The notes: generated by a model from the letters alone, not told the origin. A DNA stretch of 24,489 nt from a virus (IMGVR_UViG_2778261570_000027); one strand, 5' to 3'; positions 1 to 20,964 are shown, counted from the stretch's first letter. Translations and numbers: made by a program.

Positions 1-1053
1 TTACGGGGTAATGCCAACCGCTGCCGCCACTTTGTCGCCACTTGGCAGCGTTGCCAGAGGATTGAAACGGAGCGCCGTTTCTAGATGATCCGGTGCCAGA
101 TGTGCGTAACGCATAGTCATTTTTATATCGTGGTGTCCGAGAATTTTTTGTAAGGCCAGAATGTTTCCACCCGACATCATGAAGTGCGCCGCAAACGTAT
201 GGCGCAGAACGTGTGTGAGTTGACCGCGAGGGAGCACGATAGACGTTTTTTCCATCACGGATAAAAATTGAAAATAGCAGTCTGTGAAGAAATTGAACCC
301 ATCAAGCGCCATGATCTCTTCGTAAAGCTCTTTACTGATAGGGATGCTTCTGTTTTTCTTCCCCTTCGTTCTGACAAAGGTAATTCGGTATTTGGTCACC
401 TGTGAGCGGGTAAGATTTACGGCTTCACGCCAGCGTGCGCCTGTGCTTAAGCATATCTTAACTACCAGTGCCAGAATTGGGTCCTGACGTTTGCAATCAG
501 CCAGCAATTCAACAATCTGCTCATGGGTAAGCCATGCCATCTCTTTTTCTGCGATGGTGAATTTTCGCATGTTCTCCAGTGGGTTCGGATACGACCATTC
601 GCCCAGACGGGATAGTTCGCTAAAAACACTACTTAGATAGCTTTGCTCCAGGTTAATGGTGACCGGGCTTGCTCCTTTCTTCCATTTCTCGCTGAAGTAG
701 ATCTCGCCTGTCAGGCGTTTATCTCGATAGTGGGCAAACATTTTAGAGGTGAGATCGGTTGCAAGAGGATTGCCCAGAGCGTCAACCATCAACAGCAATT
801 TGTCATAGACATGCTGCCCAGCTGTCAGAGATTTACCATGTAGTTTGAACCATAGCTCAACCACGTCTTTCAGTGTTCGACGATCCACTGATTCACCCAG
901 CCAGGGCTTTGCTTCGGTTTCTTCCATCGTGTGGCGCTCAAAAGCCAGTGCTTCGCCTTTGGTGGCGAATTGTTTACGCACACGACGCCCACTTCGTCCG
1001 GCGGGGTAACATTCGCAAAGCCATTTCCCTGTGGTTAGTTTTCGTACTGCCAT
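1..1053 (-). CDS. int: P2/186-family tyrosine integrase (complete, 350 aa; stop codon is the first 3 nt of the window)
   Basis: Full ORF with tyrosine-recombinase catalytic signature in order (GARWREA ... HVLRHTFA ... MRYAHL = R, H-x-x-R, Y). Sits at the prophage end next to the repressor module, as in P2/186. Confidence 0.9.
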   Translation of the reverse strand: MAVRKLTTGKWLCECYPAGRSGRRVRKQFATKGEALAFERHTMEETEAKPWLGESVDRRTLKDVVELWFKLHGKSLTAGQHVYDKLLLMVDALGNPLATDLTSKMFAHYRDKRLTGEIYFSEKWKKGASPVTINLEQSYLSSVFSELSRLGEWSYPNPLENMRKFTIAEKEMAWLTHEQIVELLADCKRQDPILALVVKICLSTGARWREAVNLTRSQVTKYRITFVRTKGKKNRSIPISKELYEEIMALDGFNFFTDCYFQFLSVMEKTSIVLPRGQLTHVLRHTFAAHFMMSGGNILALQKILGHHDIKMTMRYAHLAPDHLETALRFNPLATLPSGDKVAAAVGITP

Positions 1054-1135
1054 AAAAAGCCCTCATATCAGAGGACTAAATTTAACTGTATATGTAACCA
1101 GTAATCAATGTGTGATTACTATGAAACATACATTG

Positions 1136-2812
1136 CTAAGCAACATGTAGTTCATCGTTGGCGGAAGTGGCTGCTTTGCGCTCCTGCTCAATAGCTAGAG
1201 ACTCTCTATATTCTTTCGCCTCTGCAAACATTGTCCAGTGGGCGTTGATGTTCATGTCTTCAATAACTGATTTGATTTCTTTTAAATTTACGTTAAAAAA
1301 CTCTTTTCGTGAGTTAATTTTATTGACCTGCTTTTCGTTGAAAACTTTATGCAGATGGTTTTCTAATGATGGTGCATCATCACTATAAATCATCGCATGA
1401 ACATCGAACGAAAAAGGAACACTAGCATCTCCGAGTTCACGAACACGATCAAGTGGTTCAAGGCGGCGTGTCATTCCAATTTTATATACATCTTCGCCAA
1501 ATGAACCAATATTACTAATGATATAGACGTGGCCTGATCTGGTTTGTTGAGCCATAGAAATAGCTCGTTGATTTTTAGCTTCAGCTTCTTCATATTTTAA
1601 CTGTAGTTCAGCTATTTTTTGCTCTAAAGCTAAGCGTTGTTCTTCATTTGCAAGCATAAGTTCTTTCGTTGCTTTATTTATAGCTTGCTGAATAGCTTTT
1701 TCTTCTTTTTCAGCTTCTTTTATCGCTTTTTCATATTCTCTACGAGCTCTTTCCTCTTCACGAAGCTGTTCTTTAATCCTTCTTTGCTCTTCTTTTTCTT
1801 CGAGCATAATTTCATTAACTGCTACACCCCATTTTAGCTCGTTGAGTCTTGCCTGAAGATAGATGTCACTTATTTTTGCGGACCTAAAGGCAGAGCCATT
1901 GTAATTTACTAGTTGAAATGCATCTTTTATTTCTTGGGAAAGTTTTCCAAAATTGTTGTGTTTGACTTTTGATAAAATACTGTCAACTCTTCCATTGAAG
2001 GCATCCAAAACAAAGTTTATGGCAGTATTACGCCTGTTTTGCTCAACATAATCACACGAAGCAGCTTTATTAGTTTTTATTAATGATTTGGTTAACTCTC
2101 TGGCTTTTTGTAATTCCTTGCCTGCATCTGTAAATTCATAATTTTCTGCCAGCTCATCAAGTACACTACGGTTAGGGATGATCCATTCATCACCATAACC
2201 TTCAATTTTATTTTTCATTGATTTTGCAACTGCTTCATATTTTTCTGCAAACTCTTTAGCTTCATATGCTGAACCAGCAATCTCCTTTGCTCTTTCTTCT
2301 GCATCAGAAATAATTTTTACTGCATTGTCATTAGCATTTGAGATTAGCTCATTTGCTTTATTATTAGCATTATCAAGACGTTCTTTGGCTTTCAGGCGTG
2401 CATCGCGAGCGTCTTTGGTGATTGCTATAGCTTCGCTATTAGCGTTGCTTATTGTCATCTGAGCTTGATAATTTGCTTCGTTTACTGTTTTAGCCGCCTT
2501 AATTTGGGCTTCATCTATTTTTTGCTTGGCTATTGAGTCCGCATTTTTTATCTTATTCTCTGCATCCATTACTGCGCTGTGCAATTCTTCGTATTGCCAC
2601 AATGGTGCTGCTCGCCCTTCAAGCTCTGATAATTCTCGTACGGTCTGTGCTAGTTTTTCTTGATTTTCAATCAGTTGGTTAGAAAGGGCTATGTTGTTAG
2701 CTGTCAGGTTATCTATAGCCGCTTTGTGTTTTTTACTTTGTTTAAATAATATTACAGCTAGAACAGGGGCGAGAAATGCTAATAAGAGTATAACGATGGC
2801 AAATGAATTCAT
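1136..2812 (-). CDS. Cargo protein (558 aa): N-terminal TM helix, long coiled-coil, DUF4041-like middle region, C-terminal T5orf172/Mug113 (GIY-YIG-like) domain; candidate anti-phage defence protein
   Basis: Long ORF with an SD-like AAGGA upstream of the ATG (minus strand) and only 20 nt after the cI stop. Markedly AT-rich versus flanking int and cI. Hydrophobic aa 4-23 (SFAIVILLLAFLAPVLAVILF), then an Ala/Lys/Glu-rich heptad-like region. The C-terminal ~95 aa (GHVYIISNIGSFGEDVYKIGMTRRLEPLDRVRELGDASVPFSFDVHAMIYS..., plus-strand nt ~1250-1534) resemble the T5orf172 fold as I remember it. Confidence 0.7.
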   Translation of the reverse strand: MNSFAIVILLLAFLAPVLAVILFKQSKKHKAAIDNLTANNIALSNQLIENQEKLAQTVRELSELEGRAAPLWQYEELHSAVMDAENKIKNADSIAKQKIDEAQIKAAKTVNEANYQAQMTISNANSEAIAITKDARDARLKAKERLDNANNKANELISNANDNAVKIISDAEERAKEIAGSAYEAKEFAEKYEAVAKSMKNKIEGYGDEWIIPNRSVLDELAENYEFTDAGKELQKARELTKSLIKTNKAASCDYVEQNRRNTAINFVLDAFNGRVDSILSKVKHNNFGKLSQEIKDAFQLVNYNGSAFRSAKISDIYLQARLNELKWGVAVNEIMLEEKEEQRRIKEQLREEERARREYEKAIKEAEKEEKAIQQAINKATKELMLANEEQRLALEQKIAELQLKYEEAEAKNQRAISMAQQTRSGHVYIISNIGSFGEDVYKIGMTRRLEPLDRVRELGDASVPFSFDVHAMIYSDDAPSLENHLHKVFNEKQVNKINSRKEFFNVNLKEIKSVIEDMNINAHWTMFAEAKEYRESLAIEQERKAATSANDELHVA

Positions 2813-2832
2813 TTTAAAATCCTTTTACTATA

Positions 2833-3429
2833 TTAATTCGAGACTATTGTACTTCTTATACAAGCAACCACTTCAATATCAGAAAATGCACATTCAAAGC
2901 TATTCTCTGCTGTTGTAATTTTAATCATTCCTTTAGGAAGCCTTGTGATTTTTCGAATGGAATAGGTTCCGTCGATATTGATTAACCAGTTTCCATCAAG
3001 TACTTCAGAAAATTTTTGATCACAAATGTATGTGACGAGTCCATCCTGAACAACAATTGGTGATGAAAGGTTTGCAGGAAGAAATGATGAATCGAAGACA
3101 TATGAACCGTCTTCAATCATTTTGCCTGCGGCAAGGCGAAACTTAACAAGCTCTTCTGTAGCTGCTGTCAGCGAGCTTTGCTTAAGGCCTTGTCCGGTAG
3201 TTAACCATTTGAGGGAGGTTCCTGTTTCAAGAGCACATTGGATTATCCAGTCAGCAGGAAATGTATCCCGCAAATACCTGTTCGCTAGTGTGCTTTTTGA
3301 TACTTCCAAGTGATCAGCTAAAGCCTGTCGTGTCGTAAAGCCATAGGCTTCGACTAATCGCTCAATCGCAGCCTTACCACCTTTATTGGGATTTATTTTG
3401 ATCTCACTTGGGTACTTTGATGTTGACAT
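2833..3429 (-). CDS. cI: 186 CI-like immunity repressor (198 aa)
   Basis: Divergent from apl/cII across a short switch region. Size matches 186 CI (~192 aa) rather than P2 C (99 aa). N-terminal DNA-binding-like region (GFTTRQALADHLEVSKSTLANR). Confidence 0.75.
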   Translation of the reverse strand: MSTSKYPSEIKINPNKGGKAAIERLVEAYGFTTRQALADHLEVSKSTLANRYLRDTFPADWIIQCALETGTSLKWLTTGQGLKQSSLTAATEELVKFRLAAGKMIEDGSYVFDSSFLPANLSSPIVVQDGLVTYICDQKFSEVLDGNWLINIDGTYSIRKITRLPKGMIKITTAENSFECAFSDIEVVACIRSTIVSN

Positions 3430-3474
3430 ATCTCTTTTGCGATCCTAGTATCAGTTTTGTACCCAATTGGGTAC
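3423..3474 (+). promoter_or_regulatory. Putative rightward lytic promoter (pR-like): -35 TTGACA 3423-3428, 17-bp spacer, -10 TAGTAT 3446-3451, followed by a perfect 16-bp palindrome GTACCCAATTGGGTAC (3459-3474) as candidate operator
   Basis: Hexamers and palindrome read directly from the sequence. The half-site TTGGGTAC recurs at 3408-3415 inside the cI start region. Lies in the cI/apl intergenic region where the 186/P2 switch is. Confidence 0.45.
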
Positions 3475-3524
3475 TTGTCACGATTACTACAGGCTCACCA
3501 CAAGCCAATAGGAGATGTTGCATC

Positions 3525-3746
3525 ATGACCCCTAACATTTCAATAACTCTGAATACGCCACACGTCACAATCGAGCGTTATAGCGAACTTACTGGTCTTT
3601 CAATCGACACAATCAACGATATGTTGGCGGATGGTCGCATTCCTCGGCATCGTCTTCGTAAAGACAAGAAAAGAGAAAAGGTAATGATCAACCTTGCTGC
3701 TCTTACCGTTGATGCACTTACTGATTGCAATGTTGTATTCAACTAG
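3525..3746 (+). CDS. apl: Apl/Cox-like excisionase and switch regulator (73 aa)
   Basis: First gene of the rightward operon immediately after the switch region. AGGAG-like SD (GGAGATG 3511-3517) 8 nt before ATG 3525. Small basic protein typical of Cox/Apl. The ORF-track start at 3408 would overlap cI and is rejected. Confidence 0.65.
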
Positions 3747-3778
3747 TTCCATTTTGGGATACATCAGAGGTGTCGACC

Positions 3779-4288
3779 ATGTTTGATTACCAAGTTTCCA
3801 AACATCCACATTTTGATGAAGCCTGTCGTGCATTCGCACTGCGCCACAATCTGGTGCAACTGGCAGAACGTGCGGGCATGAATGTGCAGATTCTGCGGAA
3901 CAAGCTGAACCCAGCTCAACCTCATTTATTAACCGCACCAGAAATCTGGCTGCTTACCGATCTGACTGAAGATTCAACGTTGGTAGATGGTTTTCTGGCA
4001 CAGATTCATTGTCTGCCATGTGTACCGATTAATGAGGTAGCAAAAGAGAAACTGCCGCATTACGTCATGAGCGCAACTGCAGAGATCGGGCGTGTTGCAG
4101 CAGGTGCGGTATCTGGTGATGTAAAAACTAGTGCCGGTCGTCGTGATGCTATCAGCAGCATTAACTCTGTAACACGACTGATGGCTCTGGCTGCTGTTTC
4201 ATTGCAAGCCCGTTTACAGGCTAATCCTGCGATGGCGAGTGCAGTTGATACCATGACTGGCCTTGGTGCTTCATTCGGTTTGCTGTGA
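3779..4288 (+). CDS. cII: 186 CII-like lysogeny-establishment regulator (169 aa)
   Basis: ATG 3779 preceded by AGAGG. Length is exactly that of 186 CII (169 aa) and it sits directly after apl. The N-terminal region looks HTH-like. Confidence 0.7.
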
Positions 4289-4295
4289 GGTGTTT

Positions 4296-4592
4296 ATGCT
4301 GACGAAAGAACCATCATTTGCATCGCTGCTGGTAAAACAAAGCCCGGCAATGCACTACGGTCACGGCTGGATCACGGGTGAGGATGGAAAACGCTGGCAT
4401 CCATGTCATTCACAAGATGAATTGCTGTCTGAATTGACCACGAGGAAACGGAGAAAGTCCAAATGTATGCGGCAGAAAGTGAAGTGGTTTATCAGTTTCG
4501 TTACAGAGGGGAGAGTTATTCAGTACCTGAAGATGATTTGCTCTGTTGCTATCCGTCATTGTCGGGCGATGGCAGTTACTTTTTCACGTTAA
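4296..4592 (+). CDS. Hypothetical early-operon protein (98 aa) at the position of 186 fil; identity uncertain
   Basis: ATG 4296 with GAGG 6 nt upstream, in the same operon as cII. Overlaps the next ORF out of frame by 130 nt, so one of the two may be shorter or spurious. Confidence 0.4.
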   Translation: MLTKEPSFASLLVKQSPAMHYGHGWITGEDGKRWHPCHSQDELLSELTTRKRRKSKCMRQKVKWFISFVTEGRVIQYLKMICSVAIRHCRAMAVTFSR

Positions 4593-4687
4593 AGGATGGG
4601 ACGTTTTTACGGGGAGAGCAGGTTAAAGAGACGATACGAAAAAATGTATCTCCTCTTGAGCGTTACCGTAAGAACAAAGAACGATAG
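4463..4687 (+). CDS. Hypothetical small early protein (74 aa)
   Basis: ATG 4463 with a good SD (GGAGAAAG 4449-4456). Confidence 0.45.
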   Translation: MYAAESEVVYQFRYRGESYSVPEDDLLCCYPSLSGDGSYFFTLKDGTFLRGEQVKETIRKNVSPLERYRKNKER

Positions 4688-4709
4688 CTGCGTTTGGGGG
4701 ATATGAAGT

Positions 4710-5051
4710 ATGGCAATTAATGGCGCTGCAGCAACTGTTCCATTAAGCCCCGGTGAACGCCTGAATGGACTTAATCACATTGCGGAGTTAAGGGCGAAAG
4801 TTTTTGGCCTGAATATTGAGTCAGAGCTTGAGCGGTTTATTAAAGATATGCGTGATCCACGGGATATCAATAATGAACAAAATAAACGGGCACTGGCTGC
4901 CATATTCTTTATGGCAAAAATTCCAGCTGAACGTCATAGCATCAGCATTAATGAGCTGACCACTGACGAAAAGCGGGAGCTGATTAAAGCAATGAATCAT
5001 TTTCGTGCAGTGGTGAGCTTATTTCCCAGACGGCTAACCATGCCGAATTAA
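4710..5051 (+). CDS. Hypothetical early protein (113 aa)
   Basis: ORF in the rightward early operon; ATG 4710 preceded by a G-rich stretch. No domain recognised. Confidence 0.5.
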   Translation: MAINGAAATVPLSPGERLNGLNHIAELRAKVFGLNIESELERFIKDMRDPRDINNEQNKRALAAIFFMAKIPAERHSISINELTTDEKRELIKAMNHFRAVVSLFPRRLTMPN

Positions 5052-5118
5052 CCAACTAATGAAATTAATGGCGTAAACCCGCCGGGCATCCCTTTATCTA
5101 AATTCAGGAGAATTGATT

Positions 5119-5352
5119 ATGCGTAATATTGAAACCCTCACGACTAAAACCGGACCGGATGACGCAGGGCTTAATATTTTACTGACAGAGGCTCGTCTGG
5201 AAGAACGCCGGGCAAGGGCTGAAGCAATGGCTGCTCGCCTTGATAGCCTGGCGTGTCATATCTCATCCCGCCAGCTAAACCACGTGGAAGCGGCAGAACT
5301 GCTGCGCGTGACTGCTGAAGCAATCCAGAACGAAGCGCAGGAGATCCACTAA
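5119..5352 (+). CDS. Hypothetical small early protein (77 aa, Ala/Glu-rich helical)
   Basis: ATG 5119 with AGGAG (5105-5109) upstream. Stop TAA overlaps the next start (TAATG at 5350-5354). Confidence 0.5.
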   Translation: MRNIETLTTKTGPDDAGLNILLTEARLEERRARAEAMAARLDSLACHISSRQLNHVEAAELLRVTAEAIQNEAQEIH

Positions 5353-5579
5353 TGGCTGATGCAATGGATCTCGTACAGCAGCGCGTTGAAGAAGAACGCC
5401 AGCGCCATATCCGTGCAGCCCGTGCCAAATCACCGGGCGTGTCACGCGTACTTTGCATTGAATGTGAAGCGCCAATTCCGCCAGCACGACGCCGCGCCAT
5501 TCCGGGAGTGCAGCTTTGCATTACCTGTCAGGAAATCGCAGAACTGAAAGGCAAACATTACAACGGAGGTGCTGTATGA
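5352..5579 (+). CDS. TraR/DksA-family C4 zinc-finger protein (75 aa)
   Basis: CxxC ... CxxC motif (CIECEAPIPPARRRAIPGVQLCITC) in a ~75-aa protein, typical of phage TraR/DksA-like proteins. Translationally coupled to neighbours. Confidence 0.7.
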   Translation: MADAMDLVQQRVEEERQRHIRAARAKSPGVSRVLCIECEAPIPPARRRAIPGVQLCITCQEIAELKGKHYNGGAV

Positions 5580-6433
5580 GCACCATCCTGAAATGGGCGG
5601 GAAATAAAACCGCCATTATGCCAGAACTGAAAAAATACCTTCCTGCTGGCCCGCGACTGGTTGAACCTTTCGCGGGTTCCTGTGCTGTGATGATGGAAAC
5701 GGATTATCCCAGCTATCTGGTTGCGGATATTAATCCTGATTTAATCAACCTCTATAAAAAGGTTGCCGCTGATTGTGAATCGTTTATATCTCGCGCCAGA
5801 GTTTTATTTGAGATCGCAAACAGGGAGGTGGCTTATTACAACATAAGGCAGGAGTTTAACTGCTCAACTGAAATTACTGATTTCATGAAAGCGGTATATT
5901 TCCTGTATCTCAATCGTCACGGTTACCGTGGTTTATGTCGCTATAACAAGAGCGGGCATTTCAACATTCCCTACGGTAATTATAAAAATCCGTATTTCCC
6001 TGAAAAAGAACTTCGCACATTTGCAGAAAAAGCCCAGCGAGCAACGTTTATCTGCGCCAGCTTTGATGAAACGCTGGCGATGTTGAAGGCGGGAGATGTG
6101 GTGTATTGCGATCCGCCATATGACGGTACGTTTTCCGGCTATCACACTGATGGTTTCACTGAAGATGACCAGTATCACCTGGCATCCGTTCTTGAACATC
6201 GGTCATCAGAAGGACATCCGGTCATTGTTTCTAACAGTGACACATCCCTGATCCGTTCGCTGTATCGCAATTTTACTCACCACTATATCAAGGTAAAACG
6301 CAGCATCGGTGTGGCAGCTGGCGAGGGTAAATCAGCAACAGAAATCATTGCTGTTTCCGGGCCGCGCTGCTGGATGGGATTTGATTATTCGCGTGGCGTG
6401 GATAGTTCTGCCGTGTACGGAGTACGTGCATGA
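5576..6433 (+). CDS. dam: Dam-family DNA N6-adenine methyltransferase (285 aa), orphan (no cognate nuclease seen)
   Basis: Strong resemblance to E. coli Dam as I recall it: [42 protein letters not shown] and the DPPY catalytic motif ([10 protein letters not shown]). ATGA overlaps with both neighbours. Confidence 0.88.
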
Positions 6434-8844
6434 GTCATGCCGATATGAACAACTGCTGCGGCTTTAACGAGGCTGCCGCAGCATTCTCATGGAACAGCCC
6501 GAAAAAGGCCATTAACCCTTATCTGGACCCGGCGGAAGTTGCGCCGGTTTCTACGCTTTCAAACCTGATCACTCTGTACGCTGCCGATAACGAGCAGGAA
6601 CAGTTGCGCCGCGAGGCACTGAGTGATCAGGTCTGGGAGCGTTATTTCTTTAATGAATCACGTGATCCTGTCCAGCGCGAAATGGAGCAGGATAAGCTCA
6701 TTAGCCGGGCAAAGCTGGCGCATGAGCAGCAGCGTTTTAATTCAGACATGGTCATTCTGGCGGACGTCAACGCCCAGCCTTCCCATATCAGCAAGCCGCT
6801 GATGCAACGTATTGAATACTTCAGCAGCCTGGGCAGGCCAAAGGCTTATTCCCGCTATTTACGTGAGACGATTAAGCCATGTCTGGAACGACTGGAGCAT
6901 GTACGCGACAGTCAGCTATCTGCATCTTTTCGCTTTATGGCAAGCCATGAAGGGCTGGACGGCCTGCTGATCCTGCCTGAAATGAGTCAGGATCAGGTGA
7001 AACGCCTGTCCACCCTGGTAGCTGCGCATATGAGTATGTGCCTTGATGCAGCTTGTGGTGATTTGTATGCCACCGATGACGTTAAGCCAGAAGAAATCCG
7101 CAAGACATGGGAAAAGGTGGCAGCGGAAACCCTGCGTCTGGATGTCATCCCACCTGCGTTTGAGCAACTCCGTCGGAAAAGAAACCGCCGTAAACCCGTG
7201 CCGTATGAACTCATTCCGGGTTCGCTGGCGCGTATGTTGTGCGCCGACTGGTGGTATCGGAAATTATGGAAGATGCGTTGCGAATGGCGGGAAGAGCAGT
7301 TGCGCGCTGTTTGCCTGGTCAGCAAAAAAGCATCTCCTTATGTCAGCTATGAAGCCGTGATGCATAAACGTGAGCAGCGCCGTAAGTCGCTGGAGTTTTT
7401 CCGTTCTCATGAACTGGTGAACGAAGACGGCGACACGCTGGACATGGAGGATGTGGTAAACGCCAGCAGCAGCAACCCTGCGCATCGCCGCAATGAGATG
7501 ATGGCCTGTGTTAAAGGTCTGGAGCTTATCGCGGAAATGCGCGGTGACTGCGCCGTTTTCTACACTATCACCTGTCCGTCGCGTTTCCATTCCACGCTAA
7601 ATAACGGCAGACCAAACCCGACCTGGACAAACGCGACGGTAAGACAAAGCAGCGATTATCTGGTCGGCATGTTTGCTGCATTTCGTAAGGCGATGCACAA
7701 AGCCGGGTTGCGCTGGTATGGCGTGCGGGTGGCTGAGCCGCATCATGATGGCACAGTTCACTGGCACCTGTTGTGTTTCATGCGCAAAAAAGACCGCCGT
7801 GCCATCACTGCATTACTGCGTAAGTTTGCCATCCGTGAAGACCGCGAGGAGCTGGGCAATAACACTGGGCCGCGCTTTAAGTCTGAGTTGATTAACCCGC
7901 GCAAAGGAACGCCGACAAGCTACATCGCGAAATATATCAGTAAGAACATTGACGGTCGTGGTCTGGCTGGCGAGATCAGCAAGGAAACGGGTAAATCTCT
8001 GCGTGATAACGCTGAATACGTGAATGCCTGGGCGTCTCTGCATCGTGTTCAGCAATTCCGCTTCTTTGGTATTCCGGGGCGTCAGGCTTACCGTGAACTT
8101 CGCTTGCTGGCTGGTCAGGCGGCAAGGCAACAGGGTGACAAAAAAGCAGGTGCGCCGGTACTGGATAACCCGCGTCTTGATGCCATTCTGGCTGCTGCTG
8201 ATGCTGGTTGTTTTGCCACCTACATCATGAAGCAGGGCGGCGTACTGGTTCCCCGTAAATATCACCTCATCAGAACCGCTTATGAAATCAACGAAGAGCC
8301 GACCGCCTATGGCGATCACGGCATTCGTATTTATGGCATCTGGTCACCCATTGCAGAGGGCAAGATCTGCACTCATGCAGTGAAGTGGAAAATGGTTCGT
8401 AAAGCCGTTGACGTTCAGGAGGCGGCAGCCGACCAGGGCGCTTGCGCCCCTTGGACTCGTGGCAATAACTGTCCCCTTGCTGAAAATTTGTACCAACAAG
8501 GGAAAGACAAATCAGCTGATGGGGATACCAGAACGGATATCACCCGCATGGATGACAAGGAATTGCACGATTACCTGCACAGTATGAACAAAAAAGAGCG
8601 TCGGGAACTGGCTGCAAGGTTACGCCTGGTGAAACCGAAACGGCGTAGAGACTACAAACAGCGAATTACAGATCATCAGCGACAGCAGCTCGTCTATGAA
8701 CTGAAGTCCAGAGGATTTGATGGCAGCGAGAAAGAGGTCGATTTACTCCTTCGCGGCGGCAGCATTCCGTCAGGAGCAGGCCTGCGTATTTTCTATCGGA
8801 ACCAGCGTTTGCAGGAAGATGATAAGTGGCGGAACCTGTATTAA
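6430..8844 (+). CDS. A: P2/186 gpA-type rolling-circle replication initiation endonuclease (804 aa)
   Basis: Very large last gene of the early operon, in the position and size range of P2 gene A (761 aa). ATG overlaps the dam stop (ATGA). Contains a region reminiscent of the RCR metal-binding motif (HWHLLCF). Confidence 0.8.
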
Positions 8845-8936
8845 TTACGCGGGTTAACAATTCGTGCTCTTAATAATACCAGGTATATCAGGCTGATGAA
8901 CGTAAAAAAACGTTTTACATCAGTAAGATTATTATA

Positions 8937-8956
8937 TACTGTAAATATAAACAGTG
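8937..8956 (+). promoter_or_regulatory. LexA (SOS) box TACTGTAAATATAAACAGTG
   Basis: CTGT-N8-ACAG core at 8939-8954 with an AT-rich spacer, matching the consensus TACTGTATATATATACAGTA. Located ~45 nt upstream of the next gene in an AT-rich promoter-like region. Confidence 0.6.
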
Positions 8957-8997
8957 CTTATATATACAGTATTGCTTGTGGTGTCATAGGAGGAAAG

Positions 8998-9186
8998 ATG
9001 CAGGACTATTTTTTGGAGTCTTTGAAGCTCCAGCGCATTGATTTTTTTCTTAAGCTTGTAGCGGCTAGTGAGTGTAGTGATGAAGAGAAGGGGCTGGCCC
9101 TGCAGTGGGTTTCTGAACTGACAGATGAACTCATGGCAAAAATCAGAACCCACGAATACAACCGCTCAATGGATGTCATCAGCTGA
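8998..9186 (+). CDS. Small SOS-operon protein (62 aa); possibly the N-terminal part of a Tum-like antirepressor
   Basis: ATG 8998 with a strong SD (GGAGGAAAG) directly upstream and downstream of the LexA box. The longer ORF-track start (8896) would run through the LexA box and lacks an SD. Confidence 0.45.
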   Translation: MQDYFLESLKLQRIDFFLKLVAASECSDEEKGLALQWVSELTDELMAKIRTHEYNRSMDVIS

Positions 9187-9196
9187 GGTGACTTTT

Positions 9197-9430
9197 ATGC
9201 GCATTGAAATAATGATCGATAAAGAGCAGAAGATTAGCCAGTCTACCCTGGACGCCCTTGAATCCGAGCTTTACCGCAATCTGCGCCCCCTGTATCCCAA
9301 AACGGTAATTCGCATTCGCAAAGGTAGCTCTAACGGTGTGGAACTGACCGGACTGCAACTGGACGAAGAAAGGAAGCAAGTGATGAAAATTATGCAGAAG
9401 GTGTGGGAAGACGACAGCTGGCTGCATTAA
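9197..9430 (+). CDS. DinI-family protein (77 aa)
   Basis: MRIEIMIDKEQ... aligns by eye with E. coli DinI (MRIEVTIAKT...), including a Trp-containing acidic motif (WEDDSW) near the C-terminus. ATG 9197 lies 10 nt after the previous stop and is under the LexA box. Confidence 0.7.
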   Translation: MRIEIMIDKEQKISQSTLDALESELYRNLRPLYPKTVIRIRKGSSNGVELTGLQLDEERKQVMKIMQKVWEDDSWLH

Positions 9431-9717
9431 GAAACGTTGCCCCCAAGAGGATTCATTCTGATGGGGGACTATTTTGGGCAACGAGTGAAACGAGGCGTTA
9501 GGTGGACGGCCATTTTGATAAGTGATCGTCCGCTTTTTGTTCTGAGTTCAAGCGATGGATTTAACACACTGGTTGAAGCAGAAGTATCTAAGTTCAATTT
9601 ATATTATTTGAAGGGCACTGGTCTGATGTAGTACGATTTTTGCCGGAGATGGCATGTTCTATATTGATCTCATCCATATAATGATTGGTATTATTAGCTT
9701 AGTTTAAAGAGGATTGA

Positions 9718-11295
9718 ATGGATATCAACTATGTTGTTTCAAAAATGGGGTTCGTAGATGATCTTATTAATGCAGGTTCATTTGATTCTGCCTATAAAAA
9801 TGTAAAGGATATTCTTAACGGTACCGATGAGATAAATACAATCAAAGAAAATAGAATAATTATATTATCTAATTTGGCCGGAAATCTTATTGATATCGGA
9901 AGTTTTAGTAATGTAAAAAATATAGCGGAGGAAGGCTTAAATATCTTTATAAACAATAAAAATGAATTTCTGACTATAATGAAAGAATCCTTATATTACT
10001 ATAACTTGGCAAATGGAATGAGCGCAGTTCTTGATTTTAATCCTAATGACAATGCAGATATTGATAGTTTCATTAAGCTGAATGATGTAAAAAATAATTA
10101 CTGGAAAGCGTTTAAACTTTCACAAGAAGATGGATGGGTGCCCCCTGATTTAATAGTTAATCTAGCTAATGTATTAAAAAAACAATATCGTATATCTGAA
10201 TCAATGGATTATTATGAACAAGCAATATCTATTGATAACTCAATTCCTCAGGCGTGGGTAAACAGATCTGAGGCATTAGAATTGCTTAATGAATTATCTA
10301 CAACATATACATATAAAATGATTAAAGAAGTTATTCGAGGTTATGAGTGTGCAATAAAGTCAGGGAAATGTTTTCCTTCATGGAAGGTTGCTCTTCAAAG
10401 AAAAATAAAGTACAACGAAAGTATATTGAGTGAATCATGTGTATATGGCATAGAGGATATAAGTACAGATGAAAGGCTCACGCAGGAGGAGTATGATACT
10501 TTATCAAACTACCAGAGGTTTTGTATAGATAATAATCTAATGTTGTCTGATCATTCGCTATATTGCAATTGTTATGCGTCATCTAAAGATAATATAACTA
10601 TTGCTACCACCGAGGAAGGTGTGTTTGGTGATTTTATAGTGCCAATGGAAATGGTGTTAAATAGACTTAAAGCTGAGTATTCCTTAGCACGAAAAATGTT
10701 TTTTGAATATAAGGTTGATAGTGAGTTTTTTGATGAGGATTCGGAGGTATGTTATTCTGAATTGTATAATGGAGAAATATTGTATGAAAATGTTGAGAAG
10801 TTAAGGGTTGCATTTAGAGCTTGCTTTGGTATCTTGGATAAAATAGCAGTTGCTCTGTGTCAATTATTTGATTTAAAACCAGATAGAGGACATATATACT
10901 TTCATAACTTCTGGCGGATTAGTGATGAAAAAAGAAAGCTTAAAATAAACAAAATAAATAATAAAGGATTGCTGGGTTTGTTTAGTATTGCTATGGATTT
11001 GAATGATAAAAATGGTGAGCTTGCTTTTTTTAAAGAATGGAGGAATGATTTAGAACATAAACTGTTAGTTATTCACGAGAAAGACATGTTAGTTGATTTA
11101 TATAATTCTTATGGGTTTTTTGATGAGGTGAGGTTTATTGAGAAAGAAAAGTTTGAGAAACAGCTCTTACAACTCATGAAAATTGTGAGATCAGCCGTTA
11201 TTCTTTTTGTGTTTACCATACGTATAGAGGGGAAAAAAAGTATTCCTAAAGATATGTTGACCATTAAAAATACCATCGAGAGAAAAGTATTGTAG
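9718..11295 (+). CDS. Cargo protein (525 aa) with TPR-like N-terminal region and C-terminal Rx4H HEPN-type motif; candidate abortive-infection or defence RNase
   Basis: Uninterrupted 1.58-kb ORF with SD AAAGAGGA (9706-9713) and a perfect TATAAT at 9677-9682. Strikingly AT-rich versus the flanking phage genes. R-N-D-L-E-H at aa 442-447 (nt 11041-11058) fits the HEPN Rx4-6H motif. Sits between gene A/SOS operon and cos, the P2 tin/old position. Confidence 0.7.
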   Translation: MDINYVVSKMGFVDDLINAGSFDSAYKNVKDILNGTDEINTIKENRIIILSNLAGNLIDIGSFSNVKNIAEEGLNIFINNKNEFLTIMKESLYYYNLANGMSAVLDFNPNDNADIDSFIKLNDVKNNYWKAFKLSQEDGWVPPDLIVNLANVLKKQYRISESMDYYEQAISIDNSIPQAWVNRSEALELLNELSTTYTYKMIKEVIRGYECAIKSGKCFPSWKVALQRKIKYNESILSESCVYGIEDISTDERLTQEEYDTLSNYQRFCIDNNLMLSDHSLYCNCYASSKDNITIATTEEGVFGDFIVPMEMVLNRLKAEYSLARKMFFEYKVDSEFFDEDSEVCYSELYNGEILYENVEKLRVAFRACFGILDKIAVALCQLFDLKPDRGHIYFHNFWRISDEKRKLKINKINNKGLLGLFSIAMDLNDKNGELAFFKEWRNDLEHKLLVIHEKDMLVDLYNSYGFFDEVRFIEKEKFEKQLLQLMKIVRSAVILFVFTIRIEGKKSIPKDMLTIKNTIERKVL

Positions 11296-11302
11296 TATAT
11301 TT

Positions 11303-11335
11303 TCATCGAGCGATGAAACGGTCTGTTTTTCTTTA
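11303..11335 (+). terminator. Weak candidate terminator after the 525-aa gene (short hairpin TTCATC-gagc-GATGAA followed by a T-rich tract)
   Basis: Seen by eye only: AT-rich 6-bp stem, then GTCTGTTTTTCTTT. Confidence 0.3.
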
Positions 11336-11617
11336 TAGTTTTGTCATAAAAAAGAGATTTCCTGCTTAAAATTTGGCTATTACAGAGCAACTATGTATGT
11401 TCCTCGCTCACAGTAGAGCTTCATCTTTGTAAGTCTGTATGTTTCGTTTTTCAAGTGGTCATTCAGATACGGACTTTCACTTCTCTTAGACAGTGCATGA
11501 CTATGCTGCATGAAATCGCATGATCGTTTAAGGATCGTTTTTGCTAAGGCTCGCCAGAACTAGCGGGCTTTTACGTAGAACATGCAGGTGCATGAAAACC
11601 ACTACATAAAGCGGGCA

Positions 11618-11636
11618 GGCGTGGCGGGGATACGAG
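11618..11636. other. Candidate cos cohesive-end core (GGCGTGGCGGGGATACGAG)
   Basis: The G-rich 13-mer GGCGTGGCGGGGA matches my recollection of the P2/186 cohesive-end start (GGCG[A/T]GGCGGGGAAAGCA...). It lies in the only long non-coding stretch, between the accessory region and portal gene Q, where cos is expected. Confidence 0.45.
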
Positions 11637-11815
11637 CGCGCGTAACGGGGCGAAAAAGTAATAATCCCGCGTATTGGAGAGATTGATTTGAAGTTTTCGG
11701 GATCGTGTTGCAATATATTGGCACACATTAAATGATGTTGATTTCATTGACTTAATGTGGAAATGGAACTGTGAAACAACATACGTCAGCGATGTTACTT
11801 TCAAAAGGATAGACA

Positions 11816-12109
11816 ATGAAAACCATATACAACTATGACTTTCAATACTTACGTAAAGGGGATACGCGACCTCTTGATGATGGAGAGATTGTAAGATGTT
11901 CTTCGGAAGACAATCCACTCCTGATGCTTCCGAATGTTGGGGATTATGTCGACATTACCAACAATAAAGACCGTGAGTCGTTTGGTGGGAAAGTGAAATC
12001 AAGGTTATTCAGATATACTCGAGTAAGTGAAGACCATGTTATTTGCAACATCAATATTGTTGTTGAAGAGGTTGAAGACTCGGTATGGGGCACACTTGTT
12101 AAAGAGTAA
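11816..12109 (+). CDS. Hypothetical 97-aa moron protein between cos and Q
   Basis: ATG 11816 with SD AAAGGA 5-6 nt upstream, followed immediately by a strong hairpin terminator. Lower GC than the late genes. No domain recognised. Confidence 0.5.
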   Translation: MKTIYNYDFQYLRKGDTRPLDDGEIVRCSSEDNPLLMLPNVGDYVDITNNKDRESFGGKVKSRLFRYTRVSEDHVICNINIVVEEVEDSVWGTLVKE

Positions 12110-12111
12110 AC

Positions 12112-12137
12112 AAAGCGCCTGCAGTAGCAGGCGCTTT
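12112..12137. terminator. Bidirectional rho-independent terminator (AAAGCGCCTGC-agta-GCAGGCGCTTT)
   Basis: Perfect 11-bp inverted repeat with a 4-nt loop and T-rich flanks on both strands. Lies between the convergent 97-aa ORF (+) and Q (-). Confidence 0.7.
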
Positions 12138-12154
12138 CTGAGCCTAATCTATAT

Positions 12155-13183
12155 CTAATACATATAAGGTTCGAAGCGAATTATTTCTTCGCCCAGCCAG
12201 TCGTTAAGCTCCTGCAGTCGCTTCTGTAACGGCATCAGTTCGTTGCGGACAAAGACGCGGCTGGCTTTTTCAACATCACCAAATCCCCCAACATTACTCG
12301 GCATGATTCCCATCATTTGTGGCGGTACACGGTGCGCAGCCATCATGTCATCGCGGCTGACATTTTTGATATTCAGAAACTCATCCTTCGCCGCGACTTC
12401 TGACAACGGGATGATCTGAAGCCCGTCCTTTTTGCCGTTAGGCGAGTACATGAACAGATTGCGGAAGTTACCTGGTCCTTTGGCACTTTTCATCGCATTG
12501 CGAAGGTTGTTCACGTCCTCCTGGTTCTGCGCGGCATCGGTCATGTACATGATGAAGCCTGCATGACTGCCGTTAATGTAATACTTACGGCGGAACAGCG
12601 TGGCGGACTCGTTGAGCAGGGCTGACGGAATGGCAGAAAGATAACCTGGCAGGCCGTAGATCTCCTGGTTGATGTCCGGTTCCATCAGATGAAAAATGCT
12701 GCCTTTCGTGAACTGATACGGCTGGGTTGTCATACCGTATTGCACAAACCAGTAGGTATCCAGGTCTAACCCGCGTCGGGTGTATTTTGCCAGAGCAGGC
12801 TCAAGGGCGATAACTTCACCGAAACGGTTCGTGCGTTTCTCCAGGTAGGCGTTACCAAAAACCAGATAGTCCTGTACAAAACGCGAAAAAGCCTGCTGGC
12901 TGAGCAGCGGGTGAGGGATGTAGGTGCTGGTCAGAATGTTGCACTTCACTGCAATCGGTGAGCTGTGATGCACGGCGGCGCGGAAAGTTCGCGCCAGTCC
13001 GTCGAAACTCACAGGCGGCTCATACCAACGATCCATCTGTACGCATTCCACATAGTCCAGCAGTTCGCGGCGGTCCAGAACAGGAACGGGATCACCGAAG
13101 CTGAATGCTTCGGCTGAAGTCTGGCCTTTATGCTGGATCTGTTTCGTCGACGCAGCGCGGTTCTTCTTACTCTTTCCCATCAA
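12155..13183 (-). CDS. Q: Portal protein, P2 gpQ homologue (342 aa)
   Basis: Size and position (last gene of the leftward P-Q operon, next to cos) match P2 Q (344 aa). Start overlaps the P stop. Confidence 0.85.
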   Translation of the reverse strand: MMGKSKKNRAASTKQIQHKGQTSAEAFSFGDPVPVLDRRELLDYVECVQMDRWYEPPVSFDGLARTFRAAVHHSSPIAVKCNILTSTYIPHPLLSQQAFSRFVQDYLVFGNAYLEKRTNRFGEVIALEPALAKYTRRGLDLDTYWFVQYGMTTQPYQFTKGSIFHLMEPDINQEIYGLPGYLSAIPSALLNESATLFRRKYYINGSHAGFIMYMTDAAQNQEDVNNLRNAMKSAKGPGNFRNLFMYSPNGKKDGLQIIPLSEVAAKDEFLNIKNVSRDDMMAAHRVPPQMMGIMPSNVGGFGDVEKASRVFVRNELMPLQKRLQELNDWLGEEIIRFEPYMY

Positions 13184-20896: not shown

Positions 20897-20900
20897 TCTT

Positions 20901-20918
20901 TGTATCAGCACTGATACA
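20901..20918. promoter_or_regulatory. P2-type late-promoter activator site TGT-N12-ACA (TGTATCAGCACTGATACA, near-perfect palindrome) upstream of V
   Basis: Exact TGT-N12-ACA with an internally symmetric spacer in the S/V intergenic region, the expected location of the P2 V-operon promoter. Confidence 0.5.
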
Positions 20919-20964
20919 AGTTGCAGCACTGCCGCCTTTCTTCCCCTGATGGCAACCTTTCCCT

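Follow-up and report, generated by a model that had tools for sequence, protein, structure and literature searches.

Three AT-rich blocks in a P2-family prophage

The stretch of viral DNA analysed here (IMGVR_UViG_2778261570_000027, 24,489 nucleotides (nt), called the window below) carries three AT-rich blocks: a gene for a homologue of SNIPE, the nuclease formerly named PD-lambda-1, between the integrase gene int and the repressor gene cI (block 1); a gene for a protein that joins a TPR region to an HEPN domain, between tum and cos (block 2); and ORF97, an open reading frame (ORF) of 97 amino acids (aa), between cos and the portal gene (block 3) (Table 1). The gene content around them is that of a P2-family prophage, with integrase, 186-type CI, cox/apl, cII, fil, a Dam methylase and the gpA replicase, and after gpA, according to the gene map and Pfam, a DinI-like tum followed by portal, terminase, capsid, lysis and baseplate genes. 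CI possesses both 186-type Pfam domains, and a LexA box precedes a 62-aa ORF and tum; from our analysis the window is an E. coli prophage of the Peduoviridae whose lysogeny/SOS switch is of 186 type. Its megablast matches among phage records, including E. coli vB_EcoM-813R9, Klebsiella KP12, 4LV2017 and others, have 96-97.5% identity over 79-88% of the window, and 813R9 (L001) agrees with positions 1-9440 at 99.5%, whereas phage 186 matches the backbone only in patches of ~67-73% nucleotide identity. The term 186-like, under which the prophage was described when it was read from its sequence alone, suits its lysogeny/SOS switch, therefore, but not its overall kinship, which is with 813R9 and 4LV2017 (96-99.5%). 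A contig (L025) of assembly GCA_002228995.1 matches 21.3 kb of the window with 100% identity.

Composition was examined with a sliding GC profile, per-gene GC and GC at third codon positions (GC3), and z values against backbone windows of equal length. The backbone has a GC of 0.55 vs 0.37, 0.31 and 0.40 in blocks 1, 2 and 3. No backbone window is as low as block 1 or block 2, and block 3 deviates most weakly, 0.9% of backbone windows being equally low. Early genes generally have a GC3 of ~0.39-0.49 and cI has 0.32; since they lean to AT as well, the composition is a gradient plus blocks and not a clean alternation. An extra GC dip at ~8700-9150 corresponds to the SOS promoter region and is not cargo.

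The sequence-only reading had described GC-rich modules alternating with three AT-rich insertions placed at module junctions, two of them with nuclease signatures. The blocks are genuine, since both per-gene values and windows of the same length deviate significantly, and the cargo reading stands on this point; the alternation has to be given up for blocks on which a gradient is overlaid. The junctions were placed correctly, at int/cI, at tum (SOS operon)/cos and at cos/portal, with cos fixed by the alignment to 186, and so were the nuclease signatures, of GIY-YIG type (T5orf172/MUG113) in block 1 and of an HEPN domain with RNDLEH in block 2. The block coordinates proved right as ORF ends, but the limits of insertion are wider when taken from homology breaks against relatives. 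None of the three genes is core among 186-like phages, and 186 itself is without all three blocks.

Table 1. Coordinates and composition of the features discussed in the text; slot edges are homology breaks against four relatives (L001, L002, L004, L005)
Feature	Coordinates	Strand	Description	GC	GC3	z
Integrase	1..1053	-	Pfam Int_N + Phage_integrase; left flank of int-cI slot			
int-cI slot	left edge 1116-1136; right edge 3176-3421		homology breaks			
SNIPE / PD-lambda-1 homologue (block 1), 558 aa	1136..2812	-	PADLOC + Pfam	0.370	0.27	-5.1
CI repressor, 186-type	2833..3429	-	Pfam Phage_CI_repr + Phage_CI_C			
LexA box, perfect (CTGTAAATATAAACAG)	8939..8954	+	pattern search; 186 p95-like SOS promoter			
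62-aa ORF, conserved (phrog_698)	8998-9186		between LexA box and tum			
tum / DinI-like antirepressor	9197..9430	+	Pfam DinI E=1.3e-22; left flank of slot A			
Slot A (tum-cos)	left edge 9429-9504; right edge 11491-11494 (limits also given as 9441..11491)		homology breaks			
Block 2 cassette	9637..11423	+	promoter-like TATAAT 9677-9682, Shine-Dalgarno, gene, 128-nt 3' tail			
TPR-HEPN gene (block 2)	9718-11295	+	525 aa	0.309	0.27	-6.8
cos island, conserved (155 bp)	11492..11646		homology to relatives; repeated GCATG motifs upstream of cohesive end			
Slot B (cos-portal)	left edge 11643-11647; right edge 12218-12224		homology breaks			
Block 3 cassette	11647..12224	+	holds ORF97			
ORF97 (block 3), 97 aa	11816-12109	+		0.395	0.38	-2.9
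GC-rich hairpin, 11-bp stem	12112..12137		terminator scan; between convergent ORF97 and portal			
Portal (gpQ / 186 W homologue)	12155..13183	-	Pfam Phage_portal; right flank of slot B			
Late genes				0.52-0.62	0.58-0.75	

Two slots divided by the cos island

Base-for-base alignment of a conserved island with the annotated cos of 186 gives the cohesive end at 11618-11636, GGCGTGGCGGGGATACGAG, while a search for the P2/186 cos 19-mer with up to 3 mismatches returned nothing. The island is the only stretch between tum and portal that is conserved in all four relatives, and on its two sides the relatives differ. For a wider view we fetched 80 IMG/VR loci (L027-L106) via the portal protein; 70 loci, counting the window and four relatives, could be anchored at tum, at the cos island and at the 3' end of portal. 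Slot A has 20 content types in these loci and is empty, at 77-78 bp, in 18 of them; slot B has 48 types and a minimum length of 240 bp; their pairings make 61 distinct combinations. The ORFs of slot B, nearly all oriented from cos towards portal, include retron reverse transcriptases, GmrSD, AIPR, TIR, Cap4, SieB, PIN_12, DprA, Ymh-HEPN, Schlafen-like and OLD-TOPRIM proteins. Conserved core flanks, hypervariable content and enrichment for known defence systems (3HP and PARIS among them) are thus found together, as is typical for a hotspot.

Individual genomes illustrate how the contents are exchanged. Phage 813R9 has the same SNIPE gene and cI, an empty slot A of 78 bp and a Ymh-type HEPN gene in slot B; 4LV2017 has another gene with another CI in the int-cI slot and retron St85 in slot B; E. 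coli DSM 103246 is without SNIPE and combines the HEPN cassette in slot A with IS2 and DUF262 in slot B; E. coli G5 has SNIPE, the 3HP system of Rousset in slot A and ORF97 in slot B. In phage 186 itself cI abuts int, cos and portal are 176 bp apart, and a gene called orf97 (243 aa) follows tum; in P2, ~190 bp separate portal from cos, and old/tin lie on the other side of cos. Of 5,426 complete E. coli genomes, 163 have block 1, 11 have block 2 and 10 have block 3.

According to our comparison of sequences, the gpA-gpQ hotspot of this clade is two independently recombining slots split by the 155-bp cos island. Of the two, the cos-portal slot has the more varied content in this clade (48 vs 20 types); P2 and 186 have no cargo there. 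In a limited search of the literature we did not find such a cos-based division of the hotspot described.

It was also seen that the last ~22 codons of portal (12155-12224) lie within variable slot B, that the recombination junction of this slot is inside the portal ORF, and that the C-terminus of the portal protein changes with the cargo.

A SNIPE homologue in the cI-int operon

PD-lambda-1 was found in strain ECOR26 (Vassallo 2022, PMC9519451) and has been renamed SNIPE (Saxton et al., Nature 2026, PMC13190303). According to that study, the protein is a GIY-YIG nuclease anchored in the inner membrane; it cuts the DNA of phages while this is being injected and protects against siphoviruses of diverse kinds. 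ManYZ and tape-measure proteins were found in association with it, and an induced resident prophage is left unaffected (PMC13190303).

The block 1 protein resembles it over its full length: the PADLOC model PD-Lambda-1 (PDLC03976) matches with E=2.4e-120, residues 106-550 aligning to positions 36-481 of the 491 in the profile. A transmembrane helix at residues 4-23 (FAIVILLLAFLAPVLAVILF, mean Kyte-Doolittle value 3.16 over 19 aa), followed by KQSKKHK, provides a membrane anchor within the first ~70 residues, as is characteristic of SNIPE. DUF4041 (PF13250) matches residues 267-322 with E=3.1e-12, in excess of the gathering score; newer Pfam labels the PF13250 match on the identical L025 protein 'SNIPE', and in RefSeq close copies are named 'SNIPE associated domain-containing protein'. 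Residues 427-520 form a nuclease domain of GIY-YIG type (T5orf172 E=3e-17, MUG113 E=4e-20). In the reference PD-lambda-1 of ECOR26 the two domains lie at 197-252 and 357-448, and both are found exactly +70 in the block 1 protein, by which offset the catalytic E414 of the reference corresponds to E484, a Glu in the context SLENHLH. We consider E484 a putative catalytic residue, the equivalence coming from the domain offset and not from pairwise alignment.

Gaps of 20 nt and 82 nt separate the gene from the stop codon of cI upstream and from the start of int downstream. By this arrangement it lies in the cI-int lysogenic operon, which in 186 is transcribed from pL in lysogens, and from the same arrangement we infer that the SNIPE homologue is expressed in the lysogen. 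A search of E. coli genomes recovered the same cI allele in 165 and the SNIPE block in 163 of them, in similar identity bands, which indicates that block 1 and cI are inherited as one unit. Judged from these counts and from the alignments, block 1 is no isolated insertion, and the unit that is swapped comprises SNIPE and cI, ~1116-3421; the region of the window that is unique in comparison with 4LV2017 is 1136-3421. To its left, the conserved region upstream of int reaches ~1115-1135 (homology to L004 stops at 1115 and to L002 at 1135). A terminator-like hairpin on the minus strand at 1058-1077, whose T-run overlaps the int start codon, belongs to this conserved region and not to the cargo.

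A different occupation of the position next to cI was seen in Serratia marcescens. Three loci (L006-L008) are degenerate 186-like remnants that retain the part from cI to DUF5347, a remnant of the cos core and an ORF97 homologue, and have lost the replication and structural genes; next to cI they carry PDC-M62, or a GmrSD/NsnA-like gene plus a RiboL-PSP HEPN gene. The place directly downstream of cI is taken in Serratia 186-like remnants by PDC-M62 or by PD-T4-2-like genes that come with a RiboL-PSP HEPN.

A self-contained TPR-HEPN cassette in slot A

The block 2 protein consists of an N-terminal TPR superhelix and a C-terminal HEPN domain of LA2681 type. HEPN_LA2681 (PF18733) matches residues 309-504 over positions 9-204 of the 204 in the profile with E=1.8e-38 and 132.4 bits (cut-off 27). 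Its motif R442-N-D-L-E-H447 (RNxxEH) is of the Rx4H form and agrees with the Rx4-6H signature of HEPN domains; R442, N443, E446 and H447 do not vary among 40 homologues, the most distant of which has 38% identity. The TPR part is indicated by weak Pfam TPR matches, by profile matches to TPR proteins and by an AlphaFold2 (AF2) model (pLDDT, the model's confidence score, 87.7) which is all-helical and whose N-terminal half fits TPR superhelices. Foldseek with the whole model returned TPR proteins only, and no solved LA2681 structure came up in a sequence search.

Homologues of ~525 aa occur in many Proteobacteria as solitary genes with changing neighbours, such as AbiE, Fic, HigBA-like, ArdA, Mrr and Cap4. 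In islands of Yersinia enterocolitica, in a non-P2 context, 85.5% nucleotide identity extends over exactly 9637-11423; because this homology runs from 81 bp upstream to 128 bp downstream of the gene, the block can be taken as a self-contained cassette, and the unit so defined holds one gene only. A conserved partner, as expected for a two-gene toxin-antitoxin or abortive infection (Abi) module, was not found, the neighbours being different in Cellvibrio, Vibrio, Yersinia and P2-like contexts. A small ORF downstream of tum (9437/9461-9631, 56-64 aa) was considered as such a partner and rejected: its 5' part (to ~9559) is ~87% conserved in many E. coli prophages that have no HEPN gene, and it lies mostly outside the 9637-11423 homology unit. 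A long-loop hairpin followed by a T-run was noted at ~9436-9483, also downstream of tum.

The gene lies 288 nt downstream of tum, in the place that orf97 has in 186. Its position downstream of the SOS operon makes read-through after SOS induction possible.

The family has been met before. In the HEPN survey of 2013 (Anantharaman et al., PMC3710099) LA2681 is characterised as 'Rx4-6H conserved; fused to TPR', and an LA2681 HEPN is rated 'predicted novel defense gene' in a DefensePredictor table. Table S5A of Rousset 2022 (PMC9122126) places HEPN_LA2681 (WP_000354145) in the P2 hotspot with varying partners, and it is absent from the systems cloned there. Two similarly named entries of that study are different proteins: the 'HEPN-TPR' from P4 (BLASTP against pFR83, E=2.1) and the 'Putative HEPN' from P2 (pFR103, different in sequence by inspection); both stand in the table of additional systems tested and not among the validated ones (PMC9122126).

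ORF97 and its relatives in slot B

ORF97 has a sole match, phrog_12676, a family without assigned function. The family comprises conserved proteins of 90-100 aa (89 homologues in one search) with three invariant motifs, LPNVGDYV, GKVKSRLFxY and CxINIVVEE; the 97-aa member is acidic and beta-rich. A profile search of 1.84 billion representatives gave 214 clusters, nearly all stand-alone; as fusions it returned only a few longer proteins without an informative domain and one TetR_N match, possibly a mis-called fusion. The AF2 model (pLDDT 88) had no fold match, and a PilZ domain, after which one homologue is named in UniRef, was not recovered in profile and fold comparison. The hairpin between ORF97 and portal is likely a bidirectional terminator, as 186 has tW at the equivalent place.

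Members of the family occupy three types of slot B, alone in two of them and followed by a 228-aa protein in the third. The latter type is that of two of the surveyed loci, L105 and L106 (L105:10061-11090), where a 66%-identical ORF97 homologue precedes the 228-aa protein, which has no Pfam or PADLOC match; it may be that the ORF97 cassette has a two-gene form here. Elsewhere, relatives are found beside a cos remnant in Serratia, at the end of an Agrobacterium prophage, and near AbiTii/IS110 or DpnI/SNase genes. Our best guess, which we hold with low confidence, is that ORF97 has an accessory role in exclusion, defence or counter-defence, as its location argues.

SOS operon and other features of the backbone

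Counterparts of tum in the relatives are annotated as DinI-like or as 'SOS induction modulator'. Before gpA lies a Dam-type (D12) adenine methyltransferase gene (5576-6433) which is conserved in the clade and contains a local GC dip to 0.40 (5701-6000); 186 has at this position an exonuclease-like gene, a DUF5405 gene and a PAPS-reductase-like gene. A gap of 68 bp between gpS and gpV (20897-20964) appears, by the BLAST gap against 813R9, as an empty fourth hotspot; 813R9, the closest relative, has PARIS there (AriA and AriB by PADLOC, L001 20713-22816). An Rfam scan of positions 1-13000 gave chance-level matches only, one RyhB-like at the hairpin upstream of int and one to a microRNA, both far below gathering, and revealed no known RNA in the slots, retron non-coding RNA included.

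Independent cargoes and competing explanations

We regard it as highly probable that the SNIPE, TPR-HEPN and ORF97 genes are three horizontally acquired, independently exchangeable cassettes residing in known P2-family hotspots. Each would contribute in its own way. By homology, the SNIPE homologue would be produced constitutively in the lysogen as an inner-membrane nuclease which attacks superinfecting phages, in the main siphoviruses, by cutting their DNA at injection, and which spares resident DNA. The TPR superhelix of the block 2 protein may sense a phage or stress cue and release the HEPN RNase (RNxxEH), which would then stop translation and abort the infection; ORF97 might be a small protein that works alone in exclusion, defence or counter-defence. 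Recombination at the sharp flanks (upstream of int, at the end of tum, in the cos island and at the 3' end of portal) would assemble such genes into a combinatorial, layered repertoire, and the three would not be a co-evolved system.

Whether the cargoes act independently or together had been left open at first, and can be addressed here at the comparative level. The HEPN cassette is paired with three slot-B contents and is also found without SNIPE; the ORF97 cassette is paired with three slot-A contents, namely HEPN, 3HP, and IS110 plus three uncharacterised genes; SNIPE is found with or without blocks 2 and 3 and with other contents of slots A and B (L001, L005). From the 61 combinations of slot types it follows that the cargoes assort independently, and no complete genome among the 5,426 is listed with blocks 2 and 3 together. 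At this level the data support the view that nothing suggests cooperation. The idea of layered protection by independent cargo is consequently borne out in its independence and exchangeability, but defence is experimentally established only for the SNIPE family (PMC13190303) and is predicted for block 2.

One could still imagine a single cooperating system, for instance with SNIPE as the first line, HEPN as a back-up set off when SNIPE fails, and ORF97 as regulator or antitoxin. The exact triple combination is present in 15 assembled contigs, which may be one clone, given the complete identity of the window to L025 over 21.3 kb, and ORF97 is small and acidic like some antitoxins and regulators. 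Against this, each of the three genes is found with other partners, HEPN homologues elsewhere are solitary, and the complete genomes never join blocks 2 and 3, so that we hold such a system to be quite improbable. Even less credible, indeed hardly tenable, is the explanation that the blocks are not foreign and that their low GC is a property of early and regulatory regions or of ancestral core genes lost in relatives. It could draw on the AT-richness of cI and the early genes (GC3 0.32-0.49) and on the dip at 8701-9150, which is merely the SOS promoter region; but 186 and P2 are without the three genes, relatives that are 96-99.5% identical in the flanks have unrelated genes or nothing (77-78 bp) at sharp junctions, the HEPN cassette is shared with non-P2 Yersinia islands, and ORF97 has relatives in unrelated prophages.

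It is more difficult to dismiss the view that block 2, block 3 or both are not anti-phage at all, the HEPN protein being a toxin for addiction or stress, or an SOS-linked factor of the prophage's own induction, and ORF97 a virion, packaging or lysogenic-conversion protein. The HEPN gene stands where 186 has orf97, a member of the LexA-controlled tum operon, and our terminator scan detected no strong terminator between it and tum with its perfect LexA box; ORF97 always adjoins cos and portal in P2-like phages; and neither gene matches PADLOC models beyond a generic TPR match. Several further observations weigh against our preferred account. An HEPN protein without a partner may just as well be a toxin of the addiction or stress type, and we found in the literature no report of any experimental test of LA2681 TPR-HEPN members. 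The homologue of ORF97 in a Comamonas prophage lies tightly between terminase and portal, with gaps of 16 and 20 nt, and this arrangement could indicate a function in packaging or in the virion. The validated 3HP clone of Rousset ends exactly at the ORF97 start codon (PMC9122126), and 3HP is therefore active without ORF97. Even for block 1, the N-terminal region is ~70 aa longer than in the characterised SNIPE, in the variable part which sets specificity (PMC13190303). Promoter-like sites in the window are no commoner than in shuffled sequence, so that statements on expression rest on gene arrangement, and expression of the three genes in the lysogen is inferred from it together with promoter-like motifs. 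On the other side, both slots are dominated in relatives by recognised defence systems, both genes are dispensable, as most relatives are without them, the HEPN cassette keeps its own upstream region outside P2-like phages, and HEPN homologues have neighbourhoods resembling defence islands. Taking these together, we find a non-defensive role for block 2 or 3 unlikely, though with a weight that has to be reckoned with.

Beyond the account of three exchangeable cassettes, a bolder version may be put forward, which we consider possible but on the whole doubtful: the ORF97 family would represent a new phage-borne factor, acting alone in exclusion or counter-defence, the LA2681 TPR-HEPN protein would be a new single-gene Abi RNase, and the cos-portal slot a distinct principal hotspot that has gone unremarked. 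If true, the prophage would add to SNIPE two hitherto uncharacterised functions in immunity or counter-immunity.

Significance and comparison with known systems

That P2-family hotspots carry exchangeable cargo is already known (Rousset 2022, PMC9122126; Vassallo 2022, PMC9519451; NAR 2026, PMC13586616; SNIPE, PMC13190303), and the window is one worked example of stacked anti-phage genes under a principle already established. What remains new is modest: two candidate cargoes and a more exact map of the hotspot around cos. Both candidates, the 97-aa family and the LA2681 TPR-HEPN protein, lie in slots whose occupants show a high validation rate, and junctions known to the base can aid the automated delimitation of cargo in P2-like prophages. 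With SNIPE wired into the cI-int operon beside the immunity allele, immunity and an injection-blocking defence would appear to be inherited as one unit.

In P2-like phages the main hotspot was placed between gpA and gpQ next to cos, with a minor one from int to primase (8% of systems) and more in the tail genes (PMC9122126, PMC9519451, PMC13586616). The clade of the window has the same loci with conserved flanks, extreme diversity of content and enrichment for defence; it differs in that the published hotspot was treated as one between gpA and gpQ, whereas here cos divides it into two sharp-edged slots. The tum/A-cos slot that holds block 2 is the one occupied by orf97 in 186 and by tin/old in P2, with unrelated proteins. 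The old and tin genes of P2 exclude other phages, as is known from the P2-hotspot literature, and the annotation of 186 places orf97 after tum in the SOS operon and states that its expression from a plasmid prevents infection by 186. In spite of the name, the 97-aa ORF97 of the window and the 243-aa product of 186 orf97 are different proteins on opposite sides of cos.

With SNIPE the block 1 protein shares the transmembrane helix, DUF4041, the C-terminal GIY-YIG-type nuclease and a Glu at the equivalent of E414; it differs in length (558 aa vs 500 aa), having ~70 extra residues in the N-terminal coiled-coil region. With HEPN RNases of Abi and defence systems (AbiD/F/J/V, PrrC/RloC, Cas13/Csm6) the block 2 protein shares the Rx4H motif and its setting among mobile elements and defence genes, and it stands apart from them in having no partner gene, be it an antitoxin, an ATPase or a restriction-modification system.

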